Shown: positions 345-44,500 of the stretch, in pieces | Position numbering within the stretch: position 1 is the stretch's first letter | How the letters are laid out: the number at the start of each line of letters is the position of its first letter | DNA from: a virus | Taxonomy: Duplodnaviria > Caudoviricetes | IMG/VR virus record: IMGVR_UViG_3300037503_000005 | Coordinates: 1-55,645 of that record | Reading direction: 5' to 3' (one strand) | DNA length: 55,645 nucleotides | Translations under genes and position numbers: made by a program | Notes under the pieces: generated by a model | What the model saw: only the letters and a program-made list of their open reading frames with translations | What the model was told of the DNA's origin: nothing | Database searches by the model: none

Positions 345-1918
345 TACATCACCTGTGAATCCCCGTTAGCAGGCTGCTCAGAATCAGGAGGCGGTGGAGG
401 CGGATTATCTGTAGACGGCTTCTCTGCCTCTATTTTATCTAACTCTGCCCCAGCATCATCAATGCCTATCCAATTGCGCGCCGTTTCATCGCTAATGAGT
501 GGCCGGTTGTTTTGCCCGCCCGGTTTACGCATCTCCATAACCACCCTTCGCGTCTCCGCATCAGGCACGCCCGCGTCAATCAGGCAATTAAAGTCTGCTC
601 GAAAGCCCAGATACTTCTCACTCTGATTTGAGAGTTGCGCGGCCATCCTAAGTGTCGTCTCAAGCTCCCATCTGCCAGCACCATCAAGGGGTATCTTGGA
701 CTTTCTGAGGCTGCTTTCATACTCCGCTCTGGCTTGCTGGCGGCTCACACTGGACGCTGTTGCGTCTCCCGATATTAGCTTGTGCCTCTGCTGGCATTGC
801 CCCAGGATTGCCGCGTAGTATTGGTTTCTGGTCTCGACAAAGGTCTGTACGGGCGCGGGGTCTGTGATCGTCACGTTTGGGTTGGTGTAGCCTGCGACCT
901 GACCCTTCTCGTTAAAGATCGGCCAACCCATCAGGAAGTTGACCGCCCCGCCGCCCGTCACGTACACACCGTCGGCAACGATTTCCTTAATGCCTGTTGA
1001 CGAGTCCGGGTCTGCTACTTTCTTCTTTTCCTTCGGGGGTTGCGCGTTTGAAACCGCCCGCTCTCTCGCCCCGGCCAGATTGACGTTACGCATCATCATC
1101 GTCAACGCAAGGTTCAAAGCCTTCTGGTTAGATTGCACCTGCGTTGTAATCAAAGCCTTGCGCCGTATCTCGTAAACAAAAAGTCTGCCGCCTAATTTAT
1201 AAGTACCAACATCTTCAGGGTCTCCACGCTCTTTAACTACCCTGAGTTTTGTATCGCCCTTCGCATCCAAATAGGAAAGCTCAAACCCCTTTTCTTTTAC
1301 CTCCGTGCCGTCCTTTGAGTATTCAAAAGAGCAAACGCCTATTTGCGCTTGGGTTTCGGGGTCAGTAAAAACTCCCGCGACATCTGCGGTCAACGTCTCA
1401 CAATATATCAGATCAAGCCCCGCTTTAAGGTTAGGCTGAACGGGAACTTTGCCGTCCCTGCCCTTCGCTCTTTCCACCTTCGCACGGGGGAAGAAGAGAT
1501 GCTTGACGGCGATGCTTTCACACAAGACTATCTCGGCGGCTTTCTGTAGATCACTTAGCCTGTCGCGCTCATTCCACCAATCGGTAAGCTCGGCGTATTC
1601 TTTGTTGTCAATCTTCTCCTTCTTCTTCCCGTCGTCGCTTAAAAAGCTCCAGATAGGCTCGCGGCCAAATATCCCCCCAATATGATTCTCAGTTACTTCA
1701 CCGATAACATTCTCGGAAATAAAGCCCGCCTCAATCATGGCTACGATCTTTACATAGCCCTTCATTCCTTGTGGCGGCATCTCACCAACGAAACCCTCTC
1801 CGCCTTGGTAGTGGTCTCCATCTTTGAACTTCGTGGCCGTGACAGCAACCACAGGGCGGCGCTTGCCGTCGAACAGTTTTTGAACATCCTGATAGGTGTA
1901 TTGGTCAAAGGTTTTCAT
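344..1918 (-). CDS. Portal protein
   Basis: 524 aa directly after TerL; ISDETAR-type C-terminal motif and acidic/Pro-rich tail. Confidence 0.8.
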   Translation of the reverse strand: MKTFDQYTYQDVQKLFDGKRRPVVAVTATKFKDGDHYQGGEGFVGEMPPQGMKGYVKIVAMIEAGFISENVIGEVTENHIGGIFGREPIWSFLSDDGKKKEKIDNKEYAELTDWWNERDRLSDLQKAAEIVLCESIAVKHLFFPRAKVERAKGRDGKVPVQPNLKAGLDLIYCETLTADVAGVFTDPETQAQIGVCSFEYSKDGTEVKEKGFELSYLDAKGDTKLRVVKERGDPEDVGTYKLGGRLFVYEIRRKALITTQVQSNQKALNLALTMMMRNVNLAGARERAVSNAQPPKEKKKVADPDSSTGIKEIVADGVYVTGGGAVNFLMGWPIFNEKGQVAGYTNPNVTITDPAPVQTFVETRNQYYAAILGQCQQRHKLISGDATASSVSRQQARAEYESSLRKSKIPLDGAGRWELETTLRMAAQLSNQSEKYLGFRADFNCLIDAGVPDAETRRVVMEMRKPGGQNNRPLISDETARNWIGIDDAGAELDKIEAEKPSTDNPPPPPPDSEQPANGDSQVM

Positions 1919-3093
1919 TAGTATTCCCTGTAGCCGTAGCTGTAGGCGTTTTCATCTTCAGCATATTTTGGCTCATGTAGCTTGTAGGAAGCGTACCGCC
2001 CACCGTCAATCAAGTGATCGTCAAACTTCACTACTTCATCTAAAATGATGCCGTTCTTATCCGTTTTCCAACTGTACCGCTTGAGTTCACGAATCAGGTT
2101 GACGCTTGATTCATGGACTCTGAGCGGCTTGGATTTAATGAAGTCAATCGTATCCTTGACTACTTTGTAAGCTGGCTCTATCTGAAATCCCGCTCTGCGA
2201 ATCTCTTCAATAGTCTTGGGCTCTGCCGAATCCGCAATGATCCTGCCCTTCCTCAACTCAGGAAAAGTTTTCAACTGTTCAATCAAATCAGCCGTCGTCA
2301 ATTTCGTCTGGTACAGCATCTCCCGCCAGAATAGATTGCCGTCATAGAGGATGGTTTCAGTTAAAGCGGATGGGTTGTTATAGCCGAAGTCCAGACCATA
2401 AGCCCGCTCGCCTTTATCGTACGGATATTCAACTTCCGTGGTGGTTTTCCAATGAGTGAAAATCCGGGTAGTGCCGGAAGCTATCTCACCCAAGCCATAG
2501 ATTTTCCAGTAATCATCATCGGCATCTTTCAGGCGTTCGATTTCATTAACAAGGGACGCCTCAAGAAACGGATTATCCTTGTAGGTTGTAACAGCAAGCT
2601 CGCAATCATCCCTGGTTTCTACGTCATCATAAATCCAAGAGAAAGCCTCGGATGGGTTGTAGTCAAGGATGATTTTATCTGTTGTTCTGAGGGCTAATTG
2701 ACGAAACGATTCAAGATTATTTTCGTTGGCTTCGTTTAGAAACAGGACGTTGCGCTTCCGACCTCTGACACGTTCGGATTCATCTACCCCGATGAACTCA
2801 AAAAGGTTTTTCCCTAGCTGATACTCATTGCTGGTCTTATTGTGCTTCGACGGCTGGTATATATTTAGTTCGTTAAGGATCATCAGGAAGTCGCGCATTG
2901 CGGACGCCCTGAGCGCTGGCATTGTATTGCGAGCGATGGTGCATACCTGATTCTCTGCCACCTTCGCCCAGACCAGAATCAGAAACAGCAATGCGTTATA
3001 GGTTTTGCCCGAACGTGTACCACCCCGCAAACTGGTGATGCGCCTCTGAGAGTTTCTGAGAACTCGAAACACTTTATTCGTTCGGACTTTCAT
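1918..3093 (-). CDS. terL: Terminase large subunit (PBSX/SPP1-like)
   Basis: GGTRSGKT Walker A, LFLNEA Walker B, DYNP, GLDFGY, DSAEP, DDHLID nuclease motifs. Confidence 0.96.
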   Translation of the reverse strand: MKVRTNKVFRVLRNSQRRITSLRGGTRSGKTYNALLFLILVWAKVAENQVCTIARNTMPALRASAMRDFLMILNELNIYQPSKHNKTSNEYQLGKNLFEFIGVDESERVRGRKRNVLFLNEANENNLESFRQLALRTTDKIILDYNPSEAFSWIYDDVETRDDCELAVTTYKDNPFLEASLVNEIERLKDADDDYWKIYGLGEIASGTTRIFTHWKTTTEVEYPYDKGERAYGLDFGYNNPSALTETILYDGNLFWREMLYQTKLTTADLIEQLKTFPELRKGRIIADSAEPKTIEEIRRAGFQIEPAYKVVKDTIDFIKSKPLRVHESSVNLIRELKRYSWKTDKNGIILDEVVKFDDHLIDGGRYASYKLHEPKYAEDENAYSYGYREY

Positions 3094-3631
3094 TGCTATC
3101 AACTATCTCGACCGTGATGTGCTGGAATAAATCAGCCCCGTCTTTTCCAGTGTGCTCATGCTTCTCTGACCACTCGCCCAATTCAATAGCCGCCTGCTTT
3201 TCATGCTCTCTCAGCTCACGTAAAAGCCCAGTATCCACTGCATACTCTTCAACAACCTGAAAATCTTCACCTTTGCCGATGCCCTTTACCTGCCTCACCA
3301 ATAGGCCGGTATTGCCGCCTGTAGACACTTGGGCGTAAACCTGAGCCCTTTGCTTGATTACGTTCGTCATGCGCTCACAGCGGTCATTAAGGGCATCAAG
3401 GCGGTTCTGTTTCTCCCGTATGCCTTTGGCTACTAACTTCGCCCGGATTTCCTCAATGATCTTCTCAACGCGGGACTGAAAATCAGGGTGTAGCTTCCAC
3501 CGCGCTAAGGTTCGGCGCTCAACCCCTACGCTCTTGGCTATCTCCTCATCACTAAGTCTGTCCTGAGCAACAAGTAACGCGGCCTCCTCACGTTTGGCAT
3601 TCCATTCAAATTTTGTGACATTTTGTGACAT
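3074..3631 (-). CDS. terS: Terminase small subunit (N-terminal HTH)
   Basis: EIAKSVGVERRTLARW HTH, EHTGKDG C-terminal motif, lies upstream of and overlaps terL. Confidence 0.85.
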   Translation of the reverse strand: MSQNVTKFEWNAKREEAALLVAQDRLSDEEIAKSVGVERRTLARWKLHPDFQSRVEKIIEEIRAKLVAKGIREKQNRLDALNDRCERMTNVIKQRAQVYAQVSTGGNTGLLVRQVKGIGKGEDFQVVEEYAVDTGLLRELREHEKQAAIELGEWSEKHEHTGKDGADLFQHITVEIVDSNESPNE

Positions 3632-9965: not shown

Positions 9966-11702
9966 TTACATCTTCTGTTCAGCTTCGCGCTCGTGACCTT
10001 CGATGTTTCGCGTGTAGCGTTCGTACTGCGGCACCGTCTCCGTAAATCTTCCCGACACCACATCGAAATAGAGTTCGCATTTTCCAATCCTGCCACATTC
10101 CCTGAACCTAACTTTCTGCACATGCACCTCAGTAGGCGAATGTTCATTCATCACGTCGCGCCACACTGAGAGCCCCATGTCAGCCTTGTTCCTGAAATGT
10201 GCGCTGCCACTAATATCGTAGAGAGTAGGTACGGGGTATGTACCTTGCTTGGGGTCTTTAGTAAGTTTGGTCGGATGAGCTACTAACCACAAGTGCTTTT
10301 CTTTCATGCGCACGAATCTTCGCATCCGTGTCAGGCTCTGACTGACATACTCCGTCTCATTCATACCGACAGGCCGCTTGTGCTCCAACTCATTCCACGG
10401 ATCAATGACCACGCCTTGAGTCTGAAACCCGCTCTCATCCGCCCACGACACGCAATCAAGAATCCCACTAACCGAGCAGCCGCCCTCATCCGGCAAGATG
10501 AAAACAAAGTGCTCATCCAGCCACCGCATCGCGTGCTCCATCGCAGATTCCGACATGCGCTCGACATCGCCTTTACCGAACGGCTGGCCTACGTGTATCG
10601 ACATCAGTTGCGCGGCATGTCTCTGAAGTGGTTGGTTCTCGATTGACGTGATAGCGATGCGCCAGTGATGCGTTTCAGCTAAATTGTGCAGGAGGGTATC
10701 AAGTACGGCAGTTTTGCCGTGGGAAGGTATGCCGGTAACGACCGTCCATTGACCAAGCTTGACCGTGTAGAACCAATCCAGGGAGGGGATGCCGGTGGAT
10801 AGGCCACCCCTCATACCGTTGTGATAGAGGTCGCGTATCTCGCCAGCCAGCTCACGTACAAAGTAAACGCCCTCTGGTCGCTCGCCATCCACTGCGGTTC
10901 GCTCTGGAAAGACGTGTACCGGATCATCGGGCGCGTACCTCGAAACGCTGTGTGCGATCTTGCGAACATCTCTATCAGGCAACGGCGGGTTGCATCGCTG
11001 CTCATTTTCAACCGATAGAGCTGCATAAATCGCTTCCTCGGTCATACCCCTGCGCCGCATGCTGCCCGCCAAACTCGTGAGCGCGTTATTGCGTGCGCCT
11101 TCGATGATCGGCTCGCCTTCGCCGCTGAAGGTCTGCGCGGGCTGCGGCTCGTTGAGCAGCATGACCAACCAGCCGGGGAGTTCGGGCAGCGCGTCAAACT
11201 CACCGCCCCACTGGTATCTGTTTCCGCTCACATGGAGGGACGGAGAGACTACGATGTAACCACCATCGCCGCGAACATCAATCCCTGCCCCCAAGCGAGT
11301 AGAGTTCTGAATGTTGCGGACACGAAAGCCGGGATGCTTGAAGAGAAGATGCCAACCGCCTCCCCCGGTCTGTGCATACACCTTCTCACTGAATTGTCCG
11401 TACTGTTCTTGAAGCTGTGTGATGCTTTGTGTACCGCCATGCCGTGGGTCTATGTCCAGAACTACGAAACCAGAAACTTCGCCAGTCGCTACAGCGATAT
11501 TCGCATCCGGCCACATCCCCCACCACTCCTGAATTTTCTTGGGATCATCCGTCGCGTCCAGCAACCCGTTCATGGTACGCGGGTGTTTGCCAACATCCGA
11601 GCAGGCAGGTTTATTACACGAACATCCCTGCGCCGTGGGGGTGTGGAGTGGAAATACTTTCCAGCCGAGTTCGGCATAGGACAGTGCGGCATCAAGCATC
11701 AT
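9966..11702 (-). CDS. Prim-Pol primase-polymerase + PriCT fused to SF4 (T7 gp4/Twinkle-like) helicase
   Basis: GW.VFPL, GKHP, LDID, GGWH, DVRG.GGY; EG.RN; VTGIPSHGKT, VIDPWN, LVAHP, DISGS, VQKVR. Confidence 0.92.
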   Translation of the reverse strand: MMLDAALSYAELGWKVFPLHTPTAQGCSCNKPACSDVGKHPRTMNGLLDATDDPKKIQEWWGMWPDANIAVATGEVSGFVVLDIDPRHGGTQSITQLQEQYGQFSEKVYAQTGGGGWHLLFKHPGFRVRNIQNSTRLGAGIDVRGDGGYIVVSPSLHVSGNRYQWGGEFDALPELPGWLVMLLNEPQPAQTFSGEGEPIIEGARNNALTSLAGSMRRRGMTEEAIYAALSVENEQRCNPPLPDRDVRKIAHSVSRYAPDDPVHVFPERTAVDGERPEGVYFVRELAGEIRDLYHNGMRGGLSTGIPSLDWFYTVKLGQWTVVTGIPSHGKTAVLDTLLHNLAETHHWRIAITSIENQPLQRHAAQLMSIHVGQPFGKGDVERMSESAMEHAMRWLDEHFVFILPDEGGCSVSGILDCVSWADESGFQTQGVVIDPWNELEHKRPVGMNETEYVSQSLTRMRRFVRMKEKHLWLVAHPTKLTKDPKQGTYPVPTLYDISGSAHFRNKADMGLSVWRDVMNEHSPTEVHVQKVRFRECGRIGKCELYFDVVSGRFTETVPQYERYTRNIEGHEREAEQKM

Positions 11703-12163: not shown

Positions 12164-12601
12164 TTATTCTCCCTGCTCGCCGTGTTCAAACCTTGCCCTG
12201 CGAGCCTTCAAAAGCGACGGAGCGCGCATCGCATCAAAGCGGCCTTCCAGCATAATTACCTCGCCAAATTCTGCGATAAATCGGCAGTAAAGAAATGTAA
12301 TGTTGGGGCTGATTTCGCCGTGTAAAATCATGCCGTCGCGTTGGGACAGCCGACACAGGCGAACAAACTTGGCCTGTTCTTCGTCGGTCGGAAATGTACC
12401 TTTCACTTCAACCCAAAGATTCTTTTCCGTCAGAAGAAAGTCAGGGAGATACCACGTCCCACCAAGATCGTAGCCTTCGCTCTCGTAGCTGTATGCCCAC
12501 CCTTCGGCGTCAAAAAAGACAGCCCACCGTGCCTCAAGGCGCGAGCGAAACCTGTAGCCGTTGTAGTTTGTTTCAATGGCTTTGATGGTCGAATCACTCA
12601 T
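12164..12601 (-). CDS. PD-(D/E)XK nuclease
   Basis: FRSRLEARWAVFFD, YLPDF, WVEVKG; start at MSDSTIK. Confidence 0.85.
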   Translation of the reverse strand: MSDSTIKAIETNYNGYRFRSRLEARWAVFFDAEGWAYSYESEGYDLGGTWYLPDFLLTEKNLWVEVKGTFPTDEEQAKFVRLCRLSQRDGMILHGEISPNITFLYCRFIAEFGEVIMLEGRFDAMRAPSLLKARRARFEHGEQGE

Positions 12602-13383
12602 AGTACCGGCGGCCTCTCTCTCTTGATTGTTCCAACACTCACGAAACTTTCCAGCTTTGAACCGTTGCGGCAAATCAGGGTTAAATCATCGTAGGCTTGC
12701 CCGCGTTCGTTCTGCCCTCTGTGGAAAGGGGAAGCGCGGCAACCGTCGATTGCCTTTTTAATCACTTCGACGGTGTAGCCCTCCCTGAGTCTGGCACGAA
12801 TCACCCTCTCCCTCTCCGGTGTTAGTCTGGCTTGGGGATGCTCCAGTGATTCTTGCCAGTAGGAAAAAACTTCCTGTACAGCCGTCGAGCCGTTAGGGCT
12901 CGACAATGTAGTTTCTTTCTTCTTGGGTTCTTTCCTAGAGGGTTCTTTCTTTATTTCATGTGGTGAACTTGTAACTTCACTGTATGAACTTGCAACTTCA
13001 TCCTGTGAACTTGCTAGTTCATGTGGTGAACTTGCAAACCGCTTGATATTGTCAGGCCAGATGTCCGTGAGAGTGATAACGTGGCGTGCTTTTCCGCCGT
13101 GAGGGTTCTCTTCTTCCTTGACGTGAATCAAGGATTTTCCGGCCAGTTCGATCCTTGCGGTGGTGAGCGCGTCTTTGGCCTTGCTGACCATTCCTGCGCT
13201 CATGCCCGTCTCTTTGGCTAGGGTGGCCGTAGACTTCCAGCACTCGCCCTGCTCGCCAGCCGTGCGCTTCAAGTGAAGGTATAAGGTCAGTTCAAACGGC
13301 GATAAGCCGAGCGTGAAAACCACGTTCGGAATCTCCGTGCGGTAACGTCTGCCGTCGCCCGCGTCTGAAACTGCCTGCCTCAA
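12598..13383 (-). CDS. Replication initiator, lambda O-like (N-terminal wHTH)
   Basis: LYLHL...CWKS..TLAKETGMS HTH, Ser-rich repeat linker, C-terminal LT.ER...I.ARL.EGY domain, internal iterons. Confidence 0.85.
   Translation of the reverse strand: MRQAVSDAGDGRRYRTEIPNVVFTLGLSPFELTLYLHLKRTAGEQGECWKSTATLAKETGMSAGMVSKAKDALTTARIELAGKSLIHVKEEENPHGGKARHVITLTDIWPDNIKRFASSPHELASSQDEVASSYSEVTSSPHEIKKEPSRKEPKKKETTLSSPNGSTAVQEVFSYWQESLEHPQARLTPERERVIRARLREGYTVEVIKKAIDGCRASPFHRGQNERGQAYDDLTLICRNGSKLESFVSVGTIKRERPPVL
12955..13038. repeat. Four 21-bp iterons (TTCA-N5-TGAACTTG), putative lytic origin
   Basis: TGAACTTG at 12964, 12985, 13006, 13027 inside the initiator gene, next to a T-rich tract. Confidence 0.8.
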
Positions 13384-15689: not shown

Positions 15690-16560
15690 TCAGAGCCGCG
15701 TTACTGCGTGGGACTCAGGGATAACTCGCGTATGCATCCACAGGCCGTTCGCTTCCTCTAAATCATCCGTTGAATCCGCCGGCTCGTCCGCTACCCCGGC
15801 CAACCAAGAAGGGGGAAAACGGTTTGAAGGGCTGACACTATCCGCTCGCTTCCCACCGGAGTTAGTTGATATGGTCGTGGTTCAAATGTCCTATGGACTC
15901 CCACGATTACACAGTCAACATATCCGCCCTAGCCTCGTCCGATGTGCCAGCCCTTCAGATTGAGCCAGTAGCACGCCTACGCTTCGCTACCATCCCCCCG
16001 AACCGCACCACCTGTTCTATTGGGTCAGCATCAACCCCGGCGGCTTGTCAGAATGCAGATGCTTTCTTTTTCTGGCGGTCTAACGTGTGCGGCTGGCAAA
16101 GCAACGCGAGTTGTACACGTTGGGCTCTTTGCTTCCCCGCATGGCTCAAACTGTTAAAGAACGTAGGGCGTCCAGAGTGGATGCAATCTATACCCCCATG
16201 CGGATTGATCGGCTCGCATGTGTGGCCGTGGACGCCCCAAGCTTTGTCAAAGATGCGCTCCGATGGTGCGGGCTGTACCTAACTGCTGACTGGTGCAGGT
16301 CTGCATAAGCCCGCGTATGGACGCCCGGAGCAAGCGTGCCCGACCTCGCAGAGCATGGATAAACTCGGTGGTCATCCGTAGAGCCATGATGCTTTGGGCT
16401 GGCATCTCAATAATACGTTGTCAAAGAATCAGAAAGAGGCGGCATCCCCTCGACCCGTTGTGCGTCGAGGGGTTACGGGAGGAATTCCGCAAGAGTCTCG
16501 TCAAACTCTTCTGCCGCCCCTCGCCCTTGTGCCGACTTGCAGTTTGTGGCGACACAAGAT
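15690..16560 (-). ncRNA. Candidate large structured ncRNA or ncRNA array
   Basis: No credible ORF; adjacent closed stems; boxA-like motifs; lies downstream of the tRNA. Confidence 0.55.
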
Positions 16561-16568
16561 TTCAAAGA

Positions 16569-16644
16569 TGGTCGCGGGGGCTGGATTCGCACCAGCGTTC
16601 TTCGGGTTATGAGCCCGACGAGATGACTACTTCTCCACCCCGCT
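16569..16644 (-). tRNA. tRNA-Met(CAT), initiator type
   Basis: 76-nt cloverleaf, TCGGG-CTCATAA-CCCGA anticodon arm with 3 G-C pairs, 1:72 mismatch, encoded CCA. Confidence 0.92.
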
Positions 16645-16757
16645 AAAAGTGTTTGGGTCATAGCGCAGTCCGGCGAAACTATGACCCCAGTCAGGTTCAT
16701 AACTCCTGACCGTTTATGTGATGAATGCAAAGAACTCAAATTCTTAATCCGAGCGGT

Positions 16758-17082: not shown

Positions 17083-17700
17083 CTACAGACGCTCGTTTAC
17101 TTTCTGTCGCGCTAGATTCAAAGTATCCTCGACCTCCGCGAACTGTGATTGAAGATTCAAAGCCTTGAACTGCCGCTTCAGCCTTTCGAGCCTCTGGACA
17201 GCTTCACTAGCCTGACCGATGCTGATTAACAGATACGCGATGTTGTTCTCGGTCTCCATGCGGGCAACGAAGTCCCCCGCCAATTCGTGAAAACGTGATG
17301 CGTTTTTGTATTCGATGAGCGCTTTGTGGTGGAGTCCGAGCCTGAGATATGTAGTGGCAAGCCCGTTCGCGTACTTACCCTTCAAGGTGTTGCTGGATGT
17401 CTGCTCGAATAATGATTGCGATAGCGTATGAATAGAAAGGGCTGTCAGGTAGTTTCCCGCACCTCTCTCAATCATCGCCCAGTTGAAAGCCAAGATAAGA
17501 CGCAGGTCGTTGTCTTCGGTTTCGTTCAGGGCTTCGAGCGTGACGGCGCGCGCCTCATCAAGCTTGCCCGCACAGTAGAGTGCGACGCCCCGCTCCCGTT
17601 TGGCGCTTGCGCTATTGGGGATTCCCCCGTTTAGTTCTACAATGTTAATAGTTCTTTGCATCTTCACTGAAAGGAGAAAATCACATGAGACGATTAGCAC
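17083..17700 (-). CDS. Tetratricopeptide-repeat protein
   Basis: Repeated helical pairs: G.L.EA, GNY..AL, N.LA..Y..LG...AL..Y, NNIA.L....G...EA. Confidence 0.8.
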   Translation of the reverse strand: MLIVSCDFLLSVKMQRTINIVELNGGIPNSASAKRERGVALYCAGKLDEARAVTLEALNETEDNDLRLILAFNWAMIERGAGNYLTALSIHTLSQSLFEQTSSNTLKGKYANGLATTYLRLGLHHKALIEYKNASRFHELAGDFVARMETENNIAYLLISIGQASEAVQRLERLKRQFKALNLQSQFAEVEDTLNLARQKVNERL

Positions 17701-17897: not shown

Positions 17898-18374
17898 CTA
17901 ACCCGTTTGTTCAATAGGCTCAAATTCCCTGACTCTCTGCTCCGCAATCAATTCGGATTTAACCCTTCCGGCCTCCAGTTCCAGCTCTGCCGTGCGAGCC
18001 AAGGAGACTGTCACCTGATCCCTGCTCATCTTCGCCATGTCGTCGCGGTCAATGCTTCTCAGGCGTCTAATCGCCAGTTCAATAATGTCTACGGGCTCTT
18101 CGTCCACTAGACCCCACTGCACGGCCAAGCGGTACAGGACATTAAATACTTTCTTGCCTTTGCTCCTGTCCGTGCGAAGAACGCCGTAAATGAACGAAGC
18201 GGTTTCATAGATGGTGTTTCGGGTCGCATCGTCGGAGCGGATCATGGCGCACAATCGCCCGTACTTGATGTGGCTGAATCTGGATATTTGCTTGCGGTCG
18301 CCGTTCTCGATGATGTTCTCGATTTCGGTCTCAATATCGAGTTCATCCGGCGGCAATAGTTCACACTTTTCCAT
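17898..18374 (-). CDS. Hypothetical regulator (CII-like position)
   Basis: Helical protein downstream of cro; function inferred from position only. Confidence 0.5.
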   Translation of the reverse strand: MEKCELLPPDELDIETEIENIIENGDRKQISRFSHIKYGRLCAMIRSDDATRNTIYETASFIYGVLRTDRSKGKKVFNVLYRLAVQWGLVDEEPVDIIELAIRRLRSIDRDDMAKMSRDQVTVSLARTAELELEAGRVKSELIAEQRVREFEPIEQTG

Positions 18375-18607: not shown

Positions 18608-18973
18608 CACCTCCTTTCTAATTTCACGGTCAAATGGGAGCGGGCAAACGATTAGGTGGCACTTCTCTTGTCCGCTTCCAGGGTCTTTAAGGGTCAAATA
18701 TCAGTAAAACTCGACATGCACGCCTATTTGCCTTTTAACTCTCGAATGATGCGTACCGCGCATCTAGTTATATCTTCAGAAAACATGGCGACGGCGACTA
18801 GGGTTGCTGCGCCGAGACAACATTGGAAGTCGCTGAATAACATTTAACTAATCACCGTGACGCTTTCGCCCTCTTGGTTGCGTATGTGTGAAAAGGGGGA
18901 ACGGTTAAAAGTTTGCGGCGGCGCTCTCCGATGTTTATATCTTTTATAGAGACAGTTTGGACGTTCATAGCGG

Positions 18974-19141
18974 CTAGACCGCCTGCTGTTGTATTTGCTT
19001 GGCCTGATCTTCTAACGCGATGCGGAGCATGACGGACAATCTTCGGTTTTCAGCCTTTGCGGCCTTTACATAAAACTTTCTGAGGTCTTCAGGGACTCTC
19101 ACGACTAACTGCTCGGTCAGGTTGTTCTTGGAATTTTTCAT
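18974..19141 (-). CDS. Cro-equivalent, Arc/CopG-like ribbon-helix-helix protein
   Basis: QLVVRVPEDL...AAKAENRRLS.MLR.AL RHH pattern; divergent from the repressor. Confidence 0.8.
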   Translation of the reverse strand: MKNSKNNLTEQLVVRVPEDLRKFYVKAAKAENRRLSVMLRIALEDQAKQIQQQAV

Positions 19142-19164
19142 CGGCAATTCCCCCAATGAGCGGG

Positions 19165-19193
19165 ACTATAGCACGCCTCGCATTGCATTGCAA
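19165..19193 (-). promoter_or_regulatory. PR-like promoter overlapped by GCATTGCATTGCA operator
   Basis: TTGCAA-17-TATAGT with extended TG. Confidence 0.75.
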
Positions 19194-19245
19194 TAGGAAA
19201 TCTGCATACGTTGACAAAATTTAAATTCAAAGGTTGGATACGCTC

Positions 19246-19863
19246 ATGGCAGAGTTGACATCACAAGTCACTTTTAGGGTTTCCGACAAGATGTATCAGC
19301 GCATCGGAGAGATCGCTAAAGAAGAACGCAGAAAGCCCAACGAAGTAGCGCGGGCGCTTCTTGAGCGTGGGGAAGCGGCCTATACTTCCGACGGGCGTTT
19401 GTTTGAGCCAGGAGCGGGAGAGTCGCAACCGCGCGCCGTCGCGCTGAAGATTGTCGGGCGGGTTTCTGGCGGCAAGCCTATAGAACCGATAGAGCACCAC
19501 GAAGAAATTATGGTTTTGAGTACCGACATCGCTGGCATCAAAAAAGCCCGCGCCCTACGTGTCGTAGGCGATAGCATGCGCGACGCGAATGTAATGGACG
19601 GAGATATAATCTTAGTTGGAGATTGTGAGTCACCTATCAATAAGATTGTGGTTGCCTACATCGAAGAGAAAGGCACTTTAGGAGCTACGCTGAAATGGTG
19701 GAGACAAAAAGGCCAGAGCGTGACGCTGGAACCGGCCAACCCTGACTATAAGCCTTTCACCTATCCGGCAAAGAAACTTCGCTGGTACGGCGCTCTCGCG
19801 GGAGTTATCAGGACTATACCTCTCTCTGAAGTCGCCGGAAGGTCTGAAGCCGATGCCGCGTAA
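19246..19863 (+). CDS. Prophage repressor: RHH DNA-binding domain + LexA/S24 autopeptidase
   Basis: QVTFRVSD...IAKEERR..NEVARALL RHH; GRVSGG cleavage loop; GDSM (Ser) and TLK (Lys) dyad. Confidence 0.9.
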   Translation: MAELTSQVTFRVSDKMYQRIGEIAKEERRKPNEVARALLERGEAAYTSDGRLFEPGAGESQPRAVALKIVGRVSGGKPIEPIEHHEEIMVLSTDIAGIKKARALRVVGDSMRDANVMDGDIILVGDCESPINKIVVAYIEEKGTLGATLKWWRQKGQSVTLEPANPDYKPFTYPAKKLRWYGALAGVIRTIPLSEVAGRSEADAA

Positions 19864-20263
19864 TTGCTCATGGTGCGGTAAGCAGACGGAGCGAAAGTTG
19901 TGCGAGGGTTGTCTAATATTTGCGGCCAGCGTTCCTTCGCTTTCTCAAGACGTATTAGATGATCTTCCCTTTGGGGTAATTGAGCTAGACGAAGCGGGAA
20001 AGGTTCTCGGCTTTAATCACCATGAAGAGGAGCGGTCGCACCTGCGCGCATCTGAAGTTATAGGGAAGAATTTCTTCCGCGACATTGCGCCGTGCGCGGA
20101 GGTAAAAGAGTATCAAGGTAGATTTGAAGAGTTCCTGTTAAGTGATGAGCCTTCTATTCAATTTGATTTTGTTTATAGGTTGCCCCACGCGACGATCCCC
20201 ATACGGATAATGTTTGTCCGCGCCCACGGACACAACGTATTGGTAGTAAGTAGAGAAGTTTAG
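19853..20263 (+). CDS. Photoactive yellow protein homolog with N-terminal CxxC-CxxC zinc finger
   Basis: LDDLPFGVI.LD..G.V..FN..E......VIGKNFF.D.APC matches the PYP signature including Cys69 and Glu46. Confidence 0.88.
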   Translation: MPRNCSWCGKQTERKLCEGCLIFAASVPSLSQDVLDDLPFGVIELDEAGKVLGFNHHEEERSHLRASEVIGKNFFRDIAPCAEVKEYQGRFEEFLLSDEPSIQFDFVYRLPHATIPIRIMFVRAHGHNVLVVSREV

Positions 20264-20284
20264 CAGTAAAGGAAGTCTCCCACG

Positions 20285-20506
20285 ATGTTTACTCTGCGCT
20301 GCCCACGGTGCGGAAGTTCCCGTATTCATAAAGGATACCAGCGCACGCCTTGGTTCTTAAAAATCCTCTGCTATCGCTGGTTGCATTGTAAAGATATAAA
20401 GTGCAACTATGAATGGCAGGGCTTCGCTACTCCGTGGCAACTCAAGAGGGCGAGCAGGCGAAAGCGAACTGATATACCAGCTTCACACGGTAGAAAATTG
20501 ATCTAG
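20285..20506 (+). CDS. Zinc-ribbon protein, third gene of the repressor operon
   Basis: CPRCGS...HCKDIKC. Confidence 0.7.
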   Translation: MFTLRCPRCGSSRIHKGYQRTPWFLKILCYRWLHCKDIKCNYEWQGFATPWQLKRASRRKRTDIPASHGRKLI

Positions 20507-20539
20507 GCTGTAGGCAATCGGGGGGTTGTTCTACGGTCG

Positions 20540-20578
20540 GGGCGTCCGGTTCTCTAAAGGGATCGGGCGCTTTTTCTT
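20540..20578 (+). terminator. Intrinsic terminator of the repressor operon
   Basis: GGGCGTCCGGTTCTC/GGGATCGGGCGCTT hairpin followed by a T-run. Confidence 0.7.
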
Positions 20579-20603
20579 GCGTGAAATAATTGTAATTTAG
20601 TTC

Positions 20604-20632
20604 TTGCATTGCATTGCATTCTATGGTAACAT
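20604..20632 (+). promoter_or_regulatory. PL-like promoter overlapped by GCATTGCATTGCA operator
   Basis: TTGCAT-17-TAACAT with extended TG; same 13-mer as at 19180. Confidence 0.75.
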
Positions 20633-28971: not shown

Positions 28972-29751
28972 TTAACCTAAATCGCCACTCTTTGACAACG
29001 CAGGGCTTCCCTTCCCTGCATGGGTGCAGCGGACTACTCCGGCGCTCGGATTCTTGGGGTCTGGATAAATGAAGCCTCCACTCTCGGCGCAGAGATCGCA
29101 TCTCGTGGTTTCCGTTTGCGGAGCATCTTCCCCTTTTAAGTTTTCTTTTCTCTTAACACTTTTATGGGTATCACCCGTGGAAGGGCTTGCGCTGGCACTA
29201 GGGCTTGCACCTGTGACAACCCTAAAGACTAAACCCTGCGCACGATCCTTGCCGTAAACGGCGCGCTCGACGAACACAAGGGCAGCGCGGTTCAACTCTT
29301 TATACGCGCGGCGCAGCATGCTCTCCGACTTCCCTATCCGATCTTCTAACCGCCCCCAGGTAATAGGGATAGTGAGATTCGAGCCACCTTCCCGGTAGCG
29401 GTTCAGATGGAAGTACAGGAGCTGTGCCAGAGGTGGTAATCCGCAGAGTCGAGCGTCAAAGAAATCATGGTTTACACGGCTGTCACCCTTACGGTATTCA
29501 GACTCTTGCCGGGGCTTGGGGCTGTCATATACGACAGGGCTTGCGCCCGTGCTAGGGCTTTCAGATGGAAGGGCTTGAGGGGCTAAAATGACAGGGCTTG
29601 CGTGGGTGGTAGGGCTTGCATCTGTGGAAGGGCTATCACCTGTGACAGGGCTTCCTAGGCCGAAACTCCTGAATACGTCTTCATTAGTTCCGCTGGCTGT
29701 TTCCTCGCCCGTCCTGATGCTGCCGTATTTCCTTTTGGGTTTCGTGCTCAC
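28972..29751 (-). CDS. Plasmid-type Rep / ParA-partner protein (wHTH + C-terminal zinc ribbon)
   Basis: Directly downstream of parA; LLYFHLNRYR...W..L...IGKS...LRR.YKEL wHTH; internal AGGGCTT repeats. Confidence 0.65.
   Translation of the reverse strand: MSTKPKRKYGSIRTGEETASGTNEDVFRSFGLGSPVTGDSPSTDASPTTHASPVILAPQALPSESPSTGASPVVYDSPKPRQESEYRKGDSRVNHDFFDARLCGLPPLAQLLYFHLNRYREGGSNLTIPITWGRLEDRIGKSESMLRRAYKELNRAALVFVERAVYGKDRAQGLVFRVVTGASPSASASPSTGDTHKSVKRKENLKGEDAPQTETTRCDLCAESGGFIYPDPKNPSAGVVRCTHAGKGSPALSKSGDLG
29182..29653. repeat. AGGGCT(T) repeats, mostly 18-bp spacing (putative plasmid origin or parS)
   Basis: Copies at 29182, 29200, 29536, 29554, 29570, 29593, 29611, 29629, 29647. Confidence 0.6.
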
Positions 29752-30484
29752 CGATGATCTCCTTGGCGGCTCTCAAATAGTCTACCGTTCCCGATGCCGC
29801 CGGATCGTACTGAGTGATTGGCTTTCGAGCGTTGAAAGCCTCCTTTAGCTTGACGTTCTTATTGATTGGGGAGAGCGTGTACGCCTCGAAATGGTTGCGT
29901 ATCTCTTCGTGAATGTCTCTGGCGATGTTTGTTCTTTCTAAAAACGTTGGGAGAGCGAAGACCTTCAAAGGGTGCTTGAGCTGAGTGATGATCGTGCGAA
30001 GCGTCCGCATCAGGTAGGGAATTGCTTCCCATGATTCGGGCGCGCACTCTATCGGAATCAGCACACTCTGAGAGGCCGCAAAAGCGTTGATATTTGCAAA
30101 GCCTAAGAATGTAGGACAGTCAATCAATGCATAGTCATAGCCTGATAGGTCTTCCAAGGCGCTGGCGAGCCTGTGCTCGCGGTTTAGAGCATTATTGAGG
30201 TCTAAGTCCAAGCTGGCTAATTTGAAGTTGCTAGGGGCTAAAGGAATGCCAGCAGGGGACTTCTGAATGACTTCCGAGAGCGGTTTACCATTCAGGAGGA
30301 CTTCATACATGGTCTCGCCGTCCGTGCCGTACCTGTCCAGAAGGAAGCGGGTAGCTGTGGCCTGGGGGTCTATGTCGAGCACTAAGACTTTACGGCCTTG
30401 GGTTTGGAGCGCAGCGGCCAGATTTACAGCCGTCGTGGTCTTACCTACCCCGCCTTTCTGGTTAGCTATAGCTATGGTCTTCAT
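29684..30484 (-). CDS. parA: ParA/Soj partition ATPase
   Basis: NQKGGVGKTT, DIDPQ, YDYALIDCP. Confidence 0.95.
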   Translation of the reverse strand: MKTIAIANQKGGVGKTTTAVNLAAALQTQGRKVLVLDIDPQATATRFLLDRYGTDGETMYEVLLNGKPLSEVIQKSPAGIPLAPSNFKLASLDLDLNNALNREHRLASALEDLSGYDYALIDCPTFLGFANINAFAASQSVLIPIECAPESWEAIPYLMRTLRTIITQLKHPLKVFALPTFLERTNIARDIHEEIRNHFEAYTLSPINKNVKLKEAFNARKPITQYDPAASGTVDYLRAAKEIIGEHETQKEIRQHQDGRGNSQRN

Positions 30485-40752: not shown

Positions 40753-41574
40753 TTAGTCCTCAAGTAGATTCCCGAACAGCCAACTCTTTCTTGAGCGGAT
40801 AAAATCATTCGGGTCAGAGCGGTCATCAATGACTCCGGTTAGTGGTGGAGGCGGAACGTCTCTGAACGGGAAGCGTTCTGAGATAATCTCTCCGGTGTAT
40901 TCGGCCTCTAAATCCGATTCGACCGTAAAGGCTACTTTCGCCTCTGCCTCATCAACAACAGCACTCCTGATTTCCCCCGGCAACCTCGCGTCGTAGTATT
41001 CAAGTCCGCCGCTCAAGTCCTGATGAATTGTTCCGATGATTCCAAGCGCACCGTCTAAGGCGCTCACTTGTCCTGTAATAGACAGCCCCATCGCTTTATC
41101 GACGTTCTGGACTTCCACATTCATGCGGTCAACTATCTGCCCGTTGGTCATCTTTAGCCCCTCGTCCGAAGGTCTAAGATTTCCCAAATACTGAATCCCG
41201 TTTATCAGCACGTCCTTGGTAGCTAGGTAAAGAATCGTGACCTTGACCAGCTTGTTAGTTCCTGAACCGATCCATGTAATATCTATCGCTGCACCACCCG
41301 CCGTAGGAGCCAGCTTCAATGTGTTAGTCGTCACGTCCCGGACGTGGTAGACAGTCTGGTAATCAAACGGTTTAGGCAAGAACCCGTCATCGTTTCTCAC
41401 GATCACCTTGTCGCCGTTCAATAAGCCATGGTTGGTACACGTCAGAATGTCTGTGAGCGCGGCAGTAAAGGTTTTGGGGAGACTCAGCATTAGAATCAAA
41501 TCCAACGTGGTTACTTCCCCGCAGTAACCAGTGGCTATCAGGTCGGAGTGTGCCGTGATGAGTGTGCGCGTCAT
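40753..41574 (-). CDS. Minor tail / hub protein with inserted beta domain
   Basis: Directly after TMP; HGL.NGD.V...Y.V......L.LA insertion. Confidence 0.6.
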   Translation of the reverse strand: MTRTLITAHSDLIATGYCGEVTTLDLILMLSLPKTFTAALTDILTCTNHGLLNGDKVIVRNDDGFLPKPFDYQTVYHVRDVTTNTLKLAPTAGGAAIDITWIGSGTNKLVKVTILYLATKDVLINGIQYLGNLRPSDEGLKMTNGQIVDRMNVEVQNVDKAMGLSITGQVSALDGALGIIGTIHQDLSGGLEYYDARLPGEIRSAVVDEAEAKVAFTVESDLEAEYTGEIISERFPFRDVPPPPLTGVIDDRSDPNDFIRSRKSWLFGNLLED

Positions 41575-44500
41575 CCTATCTCCTTATATGCCATCCTGAT
41601 ATTGACGAGTTTTGTAATTGAGTTCTTAAACTTGCTTGACTTAATGATGATCTTCGCCAGCCCATCCGCGTCAATAGACACGTCAGCCGAAAGGTCTGGA
41701 ATAACCAGCGACCCGTCCGCCACTGAACCGCCTGACAACGCTCCCACACTTCCACCACCCTGATAACCGGGCACGCCCGCCGCACGCATCGCGCGCGCGC
41801 CCCCCAGACGATCCCTCTGCGTGGTGGTGATAACCGTTTCGTCACCATCAACGCGAATCATGTAAGGGTCTCGTCCGGTACGTGAGTAGGGAACCAGCCC
41901 GTTAAAGGTTCGCATCCGCTCAAATACACTTCCACCAGTAGCGAAGGCAGGAGTTAAATGCTCTCTTACTCTCTCCGCTTCTTTGTCCTGCGCATCCCGT
42001 CTCCCCGCCGCTTCCTTGATCTGATTTATGATTGCGTCAAGGCGTGCAACATCCTGAATGGCATGCGATTTAGTTTTACCGTCCTTCAAACCATTAGCCA
42101 TCGTCATGTACTGCTCACGTACCTGCATCGCTGCGGCAATGGCCTGCTCGCCCGTCATGTGATCTGAGCCGAAGGTTTTGACCCTGCGTAAGATATCCCG
42201 CAGTTGTTCAAGGGCATCGCGTCCAGCCTTATCTCTTATCTTCTCTTCAGCCCTGCGCCTCGCGTTACGCCCAAGGACGAAAGCACCTATCAGAAGAGGT
42301 GTGAAGAACATGCCGCCGATGCCGAGAATGGTTCCCAGGGTGCTTCCACGCCCCAGGTAAGCCCCGATACCAGCGACAGCCAAGGGAAGGGCGGCAGCGC
42401 CCAGAGAGGCCAAGCCAGCACCGCCGAAGAGACCGCCACCGGCTAGTCCGCCAGGGAGTATCGGGCCGTAACTTCCGGCAGAGGCTAACCCTTGGGAGAT
42501 TTGTGCGCCTGTGAGTGCCGCCGGAGGCGCAAGAGAGCCGCCCGCGGCTACTGCCGCACCGCCTCCAAAGAGTCTGGTGATACCGCCGAAGATGCTGCTA
42601 AGTATTCCGCCGCCTCCACCCCCGAAGAGTCCTCCGCTTGATTGACCGCCGCCGCCAAACAGCGCCTGAAACAGTTTGTTAAGAACAAGGCGAGTTAAAC
42701 CGGAAAGGATGTCCTGAATGATCTTGCCGATTGCCCCTAATCGTTTGGTAAGCTTACTAAACAGCCCGTCTACCGAACCCGCAACGCCCTCATAAATGCC
42801 AATGATCGTATCGCCCATAATTTCGGTTGCTGAGCGTTGTTGTGTCAGATGGTCTAAGACAATCGCCCGTACCTGATCGGAATGAACAACCGATTGATCC
42901 GCGATGCGAACCTGAGAAGCTATTTGTGATTCGCGTGCTAACTGATCTGCTACAGCAACATCATTGATAGCCTGCTGCCACGCATTTCGATAGCGCTCTG
43001 CTGCCGTCCCACTGATGATGCCTATTTCCTCTTGGAGACGTTTGAACTCTTCATCTAAACGGTTACGCTCCTTTTGAATTGGCGCAATATCGGACTGCGC
43101 AAGGTAAGTATTCCGAAGCGCTGTGGTGATTCTGTCTACAACCGAATCCAGTTTGGAGGGGTCAATCTCCGCGCTCGCCACAATAGATTTAATCAGCGCT
43201 TCAATCGCAACGGCGTTTTTCCCAACGTCCTCTGCGGTCTTAACGTTTAGCTGTCCGAGCAAGCTAAGCAGGGGATTGAACGCGCCCGGATCAAGCTTGA
43301 AGCCTTGGATGTCCTCAAGGGTCTGGATCAGCTCATCGAGCGCGCCTTTGGTTCTCCCGCCATACATCTCCGCGTCTAGTATCACGCGCAACTGCCCTCG
43401 CGTGATGTTGCCCAAGGCATCCATGACGGTCTTGGTTTTCTGCTCCAGGTTTGCTCTCTGCTGTGCCTCGTCTAAACCGATGAAAGCCTGCTGTAGCCTC
43501 TTCAACTCCGCTTCTGTAAATCTGGCCGCCCCCCCGTTTCTTTGCAGCCACAATGCGTACTGTTTGAGTGGGTCAATACTCCCATCCACCGTGTTCCGCA
43601 GCTCATAGGCGCGGTCATTCAACTGGTCTATTTCCTGTCTGACTGCCGCTGACGCTTTAGCGGCATCCAAGAGTTCCAATGCCTTTCTAACGGGCTTCAA
43701 ATCTTCGGCTGTACGCCCCGCCGCCTGCGCCGTATAAGCCAAGGTGTTGTTGAATTTATCTAGTTCTGTTTGCCCCGCGCGCGAGGTGGTCGTGAGTTCA
43801 AATACTTGGGCGTTTGCGGAACTAGCGGCTTGTTCTAGTTGTTGAGAAATCTGCTGGCTTCGATTAAATATTCTTTGCTGCTCATCACTTGCAAGCTCGG
43901 CCTCCCTGACTCTCGCATCAATCACCGAAGCGATATGAAGCGCCATTTTCGCGTATTCGTTGTTAAGGTCGGTCATGCCCGACTTCAATAACTTCTGCTT
44001 GGTGGCCGCGACAACACTGGAATCACCGTAGGATGCAAGTTTAGCTATCAGATCAGTAAGTATGTCATTGGCCTTCTGCTTGACCTTGTTGCTTTCTACT
44101 TCCTGCTGAACGCGATTAGCACCCCCAGATACATCTTGAGCGTTAGCGGAAGGGAGAAGGTTGGACGCGCCGACCTGTGAGAGATTAAAAGCGCCCTGTT
44201 TATACTGCGGTCGCCCGCCGAAGGCTTGGGTGACAAAATCAGACGCCTGTTTACTCAAATCCATCGCATACTTGATGTCGTTAAGGACGGCCACCGTGCC
44301 CTTCAGGATCGGGCTGACCACCTCCCACATGATAGTTGCGGCGTCCTTGATTGAGGCGAACCAGACAGACCATTGATCCTTGTTATTTTGCAGCGAGTCG
44401 GCAACTTCAATCAGGCGCCTTGTCAGGTCGTTGAATGTGGGCTCAAACGCTTCCCCGGCTAATTGAAGTAAGCCGTCTTTAATGTTAGACAGTGCGCCCA

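Follow-up and report, generated by a model that had tools for sequence, protein, structure and literature searches.

A photoactive yellow protein homologue with a putative zinc ribbon, encoded with the repressor of a tailed phage: a candidate sensory subunit of the immunity switch

Photosensory domains joined to DNA-binding domains are found in cellular regulators such as EL222 (LOV-HTH) and the B12-dependent repressors CarH/LitR, in which light alters oligomerisation and operator binding. In the photoactive yellow protein (PYP) of Halorhodospira halophila, formation of the signalling state frees the N-terminal cap. PYPs also serve as input domains of larger signalling proteins (Ppr, Ppd, PYP-MCP and PYP-V4R; Dohmen et al. 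2025, PMC12826048), whose partners are phytochrome, histidine kinase, GGDEF/EAL, V4R, REC and MCP; the main-text passages of that survey mention no DNA-binding domain, zinc ribbon or phage. As for phages, VqmA-Phage of vibriophage VP882 is a quorum-sensing receptor composed of a PAS domain and a helix-turn-helix (HTH) domain. Through its PAS domain it detects DPO and also dimerises its DNA-binding domain, which sets off lysis (PMC8284805) via the antirepressor Qtip (PMC8284805, PMC12802170). Here we analyse a 55,645-bp stretch of DNA, the complete IMG/VR virus record IMGVR_UViG_3300037503_000005 of a tailed phage (hereafter the window), in which the gene of a PYP homologue overlaps the end of a CI/LexA-type repressor gene. 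In our best reading, to which we give about even chances, the PYP homologue is a light-responsive module that alters the pairing or the operator binding of the DNA-binding domain of the repressor.

VqmA-Phage is the nearest working analogue of this locus, and the resemblance is functional only. Both would be phage-encoded PAS sensors through which a temperate phage that has a CI-type repressor takes account of a signal from the environment when it chooses between lysis and lysogeny (PMC8284805). However, DPO is bound non-covalently and the activator is encoded apart from the repressor in the vibriophage, whereas the sensor described here belongs to a covalent-chromophore family and is coupled to the repressor gene or, in the fused forms described below, replaces the C-terminal domain of the repressor. 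The core of the locus comprises the following features.

19246-19863, + strand: CI/LexA-type repressor, 205 residues (Pfam S24, TIGR00498, phrog_4)
19853-20263, + strand: zinc ribbon-PYP protein, 136 residues, with an 11-nt overlap with the repressor gene
19865-19912, + strand: putative C4 zinc-ribbon motif CSWC-x8-CEGC, residues 5-20 (C5-S-W-C8-x8-C17-E-G-C20)
19937-20260, + strand: PYP-type PAS core, residues 29-136, with Phe54 (Tyr42 of PYP), Glu58 (Glu46) and Cys81 (Cys69)

The start of the PYP gene lies in the final 11 nt of the repressor gene (GATGCCGCGTAA), as an earlier reading made from the letters of the window alone (the sequence-only reading) had it, and is preceded by a Shine-Dalgarno-like GGAAGG run. 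The two genes are thus predicted to be translationally coupled. A public gene call for the same protein (P0001, 121 residues) takes an internal TTG as the start and so lacks the first CxxC. As the CxWC motif is conserved in homologues, the ATG at 19853 is probably the true start.

Several searches place this protein in the PYP family. It matches Pfam PAS PF00989 above the cut-off (E 8.4e-10) and the NCBIfam model TIGR02373 'photoactive yellow protein' with an E-value of 1.4e-21 and 76.9 bits, below the equivalog cut-off; the model searches proposed in the sequence-only reading thus returned the expected families, and no PHROG family matches. All 33 distinct sequences matched in the PDB are PYP or PYP-derived. 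The alignment to the best one, 1otd_A (E 1.8e-15), is gapless over about 90 residues (29/30-119 of the query to 17/18-107 of PYP) and maps Y42 to F54, E46 to E58, T50 to S62, R52 to L64 and C69 to C81, which is residue for residue what had been claimed. The ESM Atlas model of the exact sequence (pTM 0.70) has TM scores of 0.81/0.88 to the 'Photoactive yellow protein' cluster. Like the PYP of H. halophila (PDB 1NWZ, 2PYP; PMC9664959), the window protein would be a small soluble protein with a PAS fold, as judged by sequence, and it keeps Cys69, Glu46, Asn43, Phe62/63, Ala67 and Pro68. Unlike it, it scores below the TIGR02373 cut-off, carries a C4 motif in place of residues 1-16 and is encoded by a phage, inside an immunity operon and with neither tyrosine ammonia-lyase (TAL) nor p-coumaroyl-CoA ligase (pCL) genes linked to it.

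Six of the nine chromophore-pocket residues named in the consulted portion of PMC12826048 are identical, and the other three are conservative replacements (Y42F, V66I and F96Y). The sequence-only reading had listed Y42F and R52L as changes. The residues are right, but Leu52 is the family consensus, so that R52L is no departure, and Phe42 is ordinary, occurring in 8.9% of 984 PYPs (PMC12826048). According to the relevant passages of Xing et al. 2022 (PMC9664959), membership of the family is defined by Cys69, and Y42F is tolerated, with binding kept. The open reading frame (ORF) 19853-20263 can thus be assigned to the PYP family by the published Cys69 definition, and not by the TIGR02373 cut-off.

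Residues 1-28, with their CSWC-x8-CEGC motif, stand where PYP has residues 1-16 of the N-terminal cap; the replacement of the cap proposed earlier is therefore borne out for its first helix. The Pfam zinc-ribbon matches are all sub-threshold. The C4 motif is likely to form a zinc ribbon, with putative metal binding.

We looked for relatives of the protein with phmmer in 1.84 billion cluster representatives, which gave 981 matches at E <= 1e-3 and 320 at E <= 1e-10, and with limited patterns in the 2.9 million viral records of IMG/VR. Two types of zinc ribbon are found before PYP cores, a long-spacer 'CAWC...SHGIC..C' type and the short-spacer CxxC-x8/9-CxxC type of the window protein. Four IMG/VR records with the latter were found, namely the window, L002, L003 and L168. 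In all four, the PYP gene comes directly after the rightward regulator of a divergent switch, and three of these regulators are S24 repressors with different, unrelated N-terminal DNA-binding domains. The S24 repressor of L168 is 52% identical to that of the window and its gene overlaps the PYP gene by 4 nt; in L003 an HTH-S24 repressor gene overlaps it by 20 nt; and in L002 a 237-residue protein without known family is encoded upstream, with a gap of 9 nt. Within 16 kb, L002 has the PYP gene alone in common with the window, and L003 has the PYP gene, the S24 domain and one other ORF. By these comparisons the four phages do not appear to be close kin around the switch.

Two further repressor/PYP pairs can be inferred from metagenomic proteins, P0159/P0003, both on a 1,569-bp contig, and P0165/P0002, both on a 54,542-bp contig. 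The protein ends of both pairs (..DAA-stop for the repressors, MQPK or MQHK for the PYPs) fit the same 11-nt overlap. Linkage to repressors sets the phage clade apart from other PYPs. With 12 repressor-family proteins as tblastn queries against 163 PYP loci, a match was found outside the window's own locus (L001) in L003 only, i.e. in one of the 162 others, and a PYP gene lies within 3 kb of viral S24 genes at one of 80 loci, that of the close family member L168. A metagenome scan returned 80 loci, all with cellular-type PYPs except L084, a 1.2-kb fragment whose protein is 66% identical to that of the window.

A second line of evidence comes from natural fusions. In at least 13 metagenomic proteins of 212-317 residues, an N-terminal domain is followed by the short-spacer zinc ribbon and the PYP core, which together form the C-terminal 130 residues. 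None of the ten fused proteins scanned has an S24 domain. P0074 matches HTH_3 and HTH_31 above the cut-off, and P0105 has a weak ribbon-helix-helix (RHH) match. Other N-terminal regions match those of repressors that do have an S24 domain. Thus, residues 32-79 of P0035 are 50% identical to residues 10-57 of the window repressor (E 4e-11), residues 1-66 of P0024 are 51% identical to the S24 repressor P0164 (E 7e-18), and P0019, P0027 and P0028 match the N-termini of the S24 repressors P0168 and P0166 (E 8e-5 to 6e-4). Three kinds of N-terminal domain therefore occur in two forms, either as a DNA-binding domain with S24 next to a separate zinc ribbon-PYP protein, or as a single chain that joins the DNA-binding domain to zinc ribbon-PYP. 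The simplest history of the fusions is an in-frame loss of the S24 segment.

No fused form was found in four scans of viral contigs, nor among the best 80 genome loci or the 80 metagenome loci. Ten other PYP matches with N-terminal extensions carry EAL or phosphatase fragments, or nothing recognisable, and no DNA-binding domain. Among the structural neighbours of the window protein in the ESM Atlas are a cluster of MerR-type HTH plus PAS proteins (Myxococcota, TM 0.78 to the window protein) and a cluster of RHH_4 plus PAS_4 proteins (score 0.89). Cellular PYP-like proteins that bind DNA may thus exist.

The fusions, together with the gene order in all four IMG/VR records, uphold the coupling to the repressor that the sequence-only reading had claimed. 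In addition, because they join the DNA-binding domain directly to zinc ribbon-PYP, they suggest that the latter can fill the place of the S24 domain in CI/LexA repressors, that is, provide dimerisation and the response to an inducing signal. A single PAS domain would then both sense and dimerise the DNA-binding domain, as in VqmA-Phage (PMC8284805). The photoreceptor repressors mentioned at the outset follow the same logic, although EL222 and CarH/LitR use other photosensor families and chromophores and are cellular regulators, not phage immunity repressors.

The residues that hold the chromophore in PYP are conserved in the phage-type proteins, stand-alone or fused, which are 32-63% identical to the window protein. 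Cys69, Glu46, Asn43, Phe62 and Phe63 are each present in 22 of 22 sequences, for a mean column identity of 28%, and the four Cys positions of the zinc ribbon are kept in 22, 21, 22 and 20 of them. Since the chromophore residues are invariant, the pocket appears to be under selection; such invariance would be expected of a chromophore pocket and not of a mere dimerisation domain. In a first tree, which included a random sample of 45 of the 114 rows classed as 'other', the phage-type proteins, both stand-alone and fused, group together and adjoin Holophagaceae-type cellular genes (SH-aLRT 89 and 85); the phage-type group was named after this tree had been seen. A second tree was built with 30 'other' and 16 cellular zinc-ribbon rows, leaving out the long-branch rows Z_L125, Z_L131 and Z_L005, and there a constrained phage-type clade had the higher likelihood (p-AU 0.736). 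The fused forms make up two well-supported clades nested within the phage-type group. For three of its members, P0009 (on a 159-kb contig), P0011 and P0018, architecture was the sole basis for the label of phage stand-alone protein.

Zinc-ribbon PYPs are also common in cellular genomes. The long-spacer type is found in chromosomes of Acidobacteriota, in a metagenome-assembled genome of Planctomycetia and in others (e.g. L004, L011, L014, L020, L023, L057, L064 and L067), and zinc-ribbon PYPs are present in many metagenome loci as well (L085-L161). These cellular genes are not next to repressors, and the neighbourhood of L004 is ordinary and non-phage. We attempted to find conserved neighbours of the cellular genes by clustering the flanking ORFs of 32 loci, which gave spurious high-GC ORFs only, common to at most eight loci. 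At L139 (3914-4411), a PYP homologue has an in-frame stop in the zinc-ribbon region (..WGYWRG, stop, QKNITHAICSEC..), which could be due to recoding, to an error in the sequence or to a defective gene. Four of five genomes with cellular zinc-ribbon PYPs have a gene of the aromatic-lyase family elsewhere, away from the PYP gene. These genes may encode histidine ammonia-lyases, and we do not use them as evidence.

The repressor gene starts with an ATG at 19246, and a TTG is present upstream at 19234. Its product matches Pfam Peptidase_S24 (E 1.3e-16, 60.7 bits vs a cut-off of 23.3), TIGR00498 (E 7.3e-21) and phrog_4 (transcriptional repressor). It comprises an N-terminal putative DNA-binding domain of about 55 residues, the S24 autopeptidase domain and a C-terminal tail that ends in ...SEADAA. 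Alignment to Escherichia coli LexA indicates that the catalytic Ser (GDSM) and Lys (TLKWW) are kept, which we take to correspond to Ser119 and Lys156 of LexA, and the dyad is invariant across the repressor-family alignment (A6). The predicted self-cleavage site of the S24 domain is Gly-Gly, where the relatives have SAG, SGG or SSG, and the repressor would be SOS-inducible if such a site is cleaved. Residues 1-60 have no match in Pfam or the PDB. Because weak RHH_5 matches are found for relatives of the N-terminus (P0105, E 0.0011; P0164, E 0.02), this domain may be RHH-like.

Eleven close relatives of the repressor are found in metagenomes, with 47-76% identity (alignment A7), and almost all of them have ..(D/A)AA as their last residues. 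A tail of about 15 residues past the S24 domain (19816-19863 in the window), ending in ..NEQxEADAA or similar, is present in 11 of the 12 members of the family. Its DNA overlaps the ribosome-binding site and the start of the PYP gene. The tail may mark the protein for degradation or serve for docking. In summary, the window repressor resembles LexA and lambda CI in its Ser-Lys dyad, in the divergent arrangement with a small Cro-like gene and in the flanking operator-like repeats. It differs from them in its N-terminal domain without Pfam or PDB family, its Gly-Gly scissile site, its conserved ..EADAA tail and the sensor gene that overlaps its end.

The region 18974-20618 is a classical divergent switch. 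Besides the genes listed above, it contains the following features.

18974-19156, - strand: small divergent regulator, 60 residues, Arc/RHH-like, weak match to phrog_582 (Arc-like repressor; E 0.0075)
19165-19193, - strand: leftward sigma-70-like promoter, TTGCAA-17-TATAGT with a TG extension, 9 of 12 consensus positions, a consensus match only
19177-19192: operator-like repeat, copy 1 (CTCGCATTGCATTGCA), between the divergent genes
20285-20506, + strand: orphan Cys-rich ORF, 73 residues, basic tail, Shine-Dalgarno-like AGGAAG run
20540-20579, + strand: intrinsic-terminator-like hairpin and U-run, 14 pairs (20540-20572) and a loop of 5, closing the repressor-PYP transcript
20603-20618: operator-like repeat, copy 2 (CTTGCATTGCATTGCA), just past the hairpin and upstream of the rightward genes from 20712 on

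The 60-residue protein has no Pfam family in a Pfam scan. Its gene is a candidate Cro analogue and would open the leftward (lytic) transcription unit; small divergent regulators occupy the equivalent position in L002, L003 and L168. The 16-nt repeat CTYGCATTGCATTGCA has one copy at 19177-19192 and one at 20603-20618, and the exact 13-mer GCATTGCATTGCA occurs twice in the 55.6 kb, at the first copy and at 20606-20618. Copy 1 contains the palindrome TTGCA-T-TGCAA (19183-19193), and the -35 element of the leftward promoter-like site overlaps this copy of the repeat. The two repeats are thus candidate operators that may bracket the immunity cassette. A third, imperfect copy of the core (TTGCATTGTAA) is found at 20381-20391, within the 73-residue ORF.

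The hairpin, which was missed by a pattern scan for terminators, was found by folding: the region 20500-20590 folds with -39.2 kcal/mol (z -4.95), and none of 200 shuffled sequences is as good. The single terminator that the sequence-only reading had placed behind the third gene is thus borne out as a terminator-like hairpin. The third gene itself fared differently. The 73-residue ORF has no homologue, no Pfam family above the cut-off and no PHROG family, and the gene that follows the PYP gene differs each time, encoding a membrane protein in L002, a 256-residue protein in L003 and a 99-residue ORF in L084, and being convergent in L168. The conserved unit is thus made of the repressor and PYP genes, to which the 73-residue ORF is a possible third gene in the window. 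Accordingly, of the three-gene operon and the repressor-PYP-zinc ribbon gene order proposed in the sequence-only reading, the first two genes hold, in 4/4 records, and the third, the zinc-ribbon gene, does not.

A six-frame HMM search of the whole 55,645-bp record, with positive controls that worked, gave no aromatic ammonia-lyase (PF00221) or AMP-binding ligase (PF00501) at E <= 1, and the L002, L003 and L168 records have none either. The claim that the phage encodes neither enzyme for making and activating p-coumarate thus stands for the window and its three relatives, and chromophore loading must rely on the host. The lack of linked chromophore genes is usual for PYPs: of the 113 pyp operons predicted in the 2025 survey, no more than 5% include TAL, and 32% include pCL (PMC12826048).

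We conclude that these phages are temperate, because they encode S24 repressors, because L002 and L003 have tyrosine integrases and because the L003 record is classed as a provirus. We searched the window for tyrosine and serine recombinases and found none. As it encodes a ParA-like protein, the phage may persist as a plasmid prophage. Metagenome runs from soil and biocrust contain pieces of identical DNA, one of them a 906-nt contig that spans 19403-20308. These runs all date from 2020 and may be from one campaign, and two of them are matched by identical 151-nt contigs. The window has no DNA match among GenBank phages. Its 55,645 bp carry a direct terminal repeat of 127 nt; despite this repeat, CheckV estimates the completeness at 71%, so that the record may lack part of the genome. 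Genes for a DNA methyltransferase, an RNase H and an HNH nuclease are among its PHROG matches, as are the following.

1918-3102: large terminase
9966-11702: primase/helicase
12598-13383: replication initiator
29684-30484, - strand: ParA-like partition protein
41571-45470: tape measure protein

Some side observations concern the genes to the left of the switch. The first 19 residues of a 38-residue ORF (18852-18968, - strand) match the start of ParB-like genes found at the same position in L003 (294 residues) and L002 (276 residues), and the ParB-like gene thus appears to be truncated in the window phage. A TPR protein (17083-17700, - strand) has a relative in L002 (30% identity), and a 158-residue protein without known family (17898-18374, - strand) has one in L003 (45% identity). 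Both genes may belong to an early leftward operon of this phage group. A tRNA-Met (CAT) gene (16569-16644, - strand) lies within the span of a 117-residue ORF on the + strand (16293-16646), and the latter is therefore probably not real.

The most likely mechanism, in our view, is the following. The PYP protein would be made together with the CI/LexA-type repressor from one transcript expressed in the lysogen, by translational coupling, and would serve as the sensory subunit of the immunity switch. Host enzymes would load p-coumarate, or a related hydroxycinnamate, on Cys81, and blue or near-UV light would act on the loaded protein. Its N-terminal region, which is here a zinc ribbon, would rearrange in the light and so shift the pairing or the operator binding of the repressor DNA-binding domains, with 19177-19192 and 20603-20618 as candidate target operators. 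The zinc ribbon occupies the position of the PYP cap, and in the fusions it is located between the DNA-binding domain and the PAS core. Light would be an input added to the SOS input, kept by the S24 domain, and in the fusions zinc ribbon-PYP would supply both dimerisation and signal. In this scheme, four points are inferred: that the chromophore is loaded, that the signal is light, that the protein touches the repressor, and which way it acts, towards induction or stabilisation. The sequence-only reading had the sensor tune the cleavage or the stability of the repressor. Since an S24 domain is lacking from the fused forms scanned, DNA binding or oligomerisation is a more probable point of action than cleavage in particular. 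A broader and more tentative proposition, for which the chances seem somewhat less than even, is that soil phages have a natural photoreceptor in their immunity switch, such that blue or near-UV light controls the repressor, and hence induction, via a zinc-ribbon PYP that is either a separate subunit or part of a single-chain light-gated repressor.

A number of observations weigh against the light-responsive module. Its contact with the repressor is purely conjectural. The scissile site of the repressor (19462-19473, residues 73-76) reads VSGG where LexA has VAAG, with Gly-Gly instead of Ala-Gly or Cys-Gly, and no chromophore genes were found in 4/4 phages. A search for the host by TerL gave matches in only six of 401 Acidobacteriota genomes, with 25-38% identity. 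The phage origin of the fused proteins rests on the homology of their N-termini and on the sizes of contigs (49,223 bp for P0024 and 37,340 bp for P0203). The architecture is not specific to phages, as a C4 motif is present just before the PAS core in 40 of the best 150 cluster representatives. The 73-residue ORF is missing behind the PYP gene in L002, L003, L084 and L168, so that the third gene is not conserved. Position 42 is variable among the 22 phage-type proteins (12 Phe, 8 Tyr, 1 Leu and 1 Val), and the window protein has Phe54 in place of Tyr42, which under the published definition does not disqualify it as a PYP. Finally, its TIGR02373 score of 76.9 bits is below the trusted cut-off of 143.05; the model reaches only about 20% of PYP homologues according to Xing et al. 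2022 (PMC9664959).

Part of this evidence fits a PYP-fold domain that regulates the repressor without light, by responding to a hydroxycinnamate or another ligand, by sensing redox or thiols through its Cys residue, or simply as a module for dimerisation or partner binding. Lignin-derived hydroxycinnamates are abundant in soil, no chromophore genes were found in the four phage records, and Tyr42 is replaced in 14 of the 22 phage-type proteins. Moreover, binding of small ligands and dimerisation of DNA-binding domains are frequent functions of PAS domains, as in VqmA-Phage with DPO (PMC8284805), and redox neofunctionalisation of some PYPs is discussed in a passage of Xing et al. (PMC9664959). 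We nevertheless consider a function without light unlikely, though to be taken seriously. The same authors regard Cys69 together with Glu46, invariant here in 22/22 sequences, as the signature of functional PYPs that bind p-coumaric acid; by their account, Y42F keeps binding, and changes of Y42 and E46 never co-occur in PYPs with Cys69 (PMC9664959). The absence of linked chromophore genes is the norm in the family, as mentioned above. The evidence presented here does not separate light from a chemical ligand.

The PYP gene might otherwise be a lysogenic-conversion ('moron') gene, an extra light sensor for pathways of the host that is part of the repressor transcript merely because lysogens express that transcript. 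Genes co-transcribed with a repressor can be accessory, and accessory genes are often found there, as exemplified by lambda rexAB, which speaks against a sensory subunit as well. The nearest cellular relatives, of the Holophagaceae type (L004/L086), are stand-alone genes in ordinary chromosomal contexts, and, in the 2025 survey, 83% of the PYPs with Cys69 consist of a single domain and have no known partner (PMC12826048). However, a sensor directed at the host would hardly be expected to have been fused several times to DNA-binding domains of the repressor type, or to keep its place, mostly with an overlap, behind four different regulators. We thus hold a moron to be quite improbable. Still far less probable is a decaying or non-functional acquisition whose linkage would have been inherited by chance among related phages. 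It would agree with the finding of only four viral records among the 2.9 million scanned with limited patterns, all of which may share one ancestor. Nevertheless, the frame is intact, the key residues are invariant across proteins that have diverged to 32-63% identity with the window protein, the flanking genes are largely unrelated between records, and the identical sequence was recovered from several metagenome runs. It is the fusions and the invariant Cys and Glu that disfavour both the moron and the decay.

The light-responsive module, if it is one, would be without precedent in the sources that we covered. PYP was not found by tblastn in 50,697 GenBank phage records, and in 72,556 plasmids the same search gave five cellular megaplasmid PYPs, all without zinc ribbon. 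Searches by title and abstract identified no publication on a phage-encoded PYP or on a photoreceptor that controls lysogeny. The keyword passages in the main text of the two PYP family surveys name no phage-encoded PYP, zinc ribbon or repressor partner (PMC9664959, PMC12826048). This agrees with the statement in the sequence-only reading that no phage switch with a PYP has been described. Zinc ribbon-PYP and its fusion to a DNA-binding domain constitute a new architecture, found here in what is also a new setting, phage immunity.

Both surveys treat the downstream partner of single-domain PYPs as an open question (PMC12826048, PMC9664959). The gene order and the fusions reported here name a concrete class of partners, the DNA-binding domains of phage repressors, and this is directly testable. 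Should the signal be something other than light, zinc ribbon-PYP proteins and their phage branch would still be additions to the family as presented in the main text of the two surveys, from which both are absent. If our reading is true, DNA binding would be the first direct output identified for any PYP, and the compact fusions of 212-317 residues would be ready candidates for optogenetic repressors. It would also be the first lysis-lysogeny decision of a phage gated directly by light, not by DNA damage or chemical signals. Light would then join the short list of cues read by temperate phages, i.e. the SOS response, arbitrium peptides and quorum-sensing molecules of the host, and it would be a cue well suited to sunlit soil surfaces.

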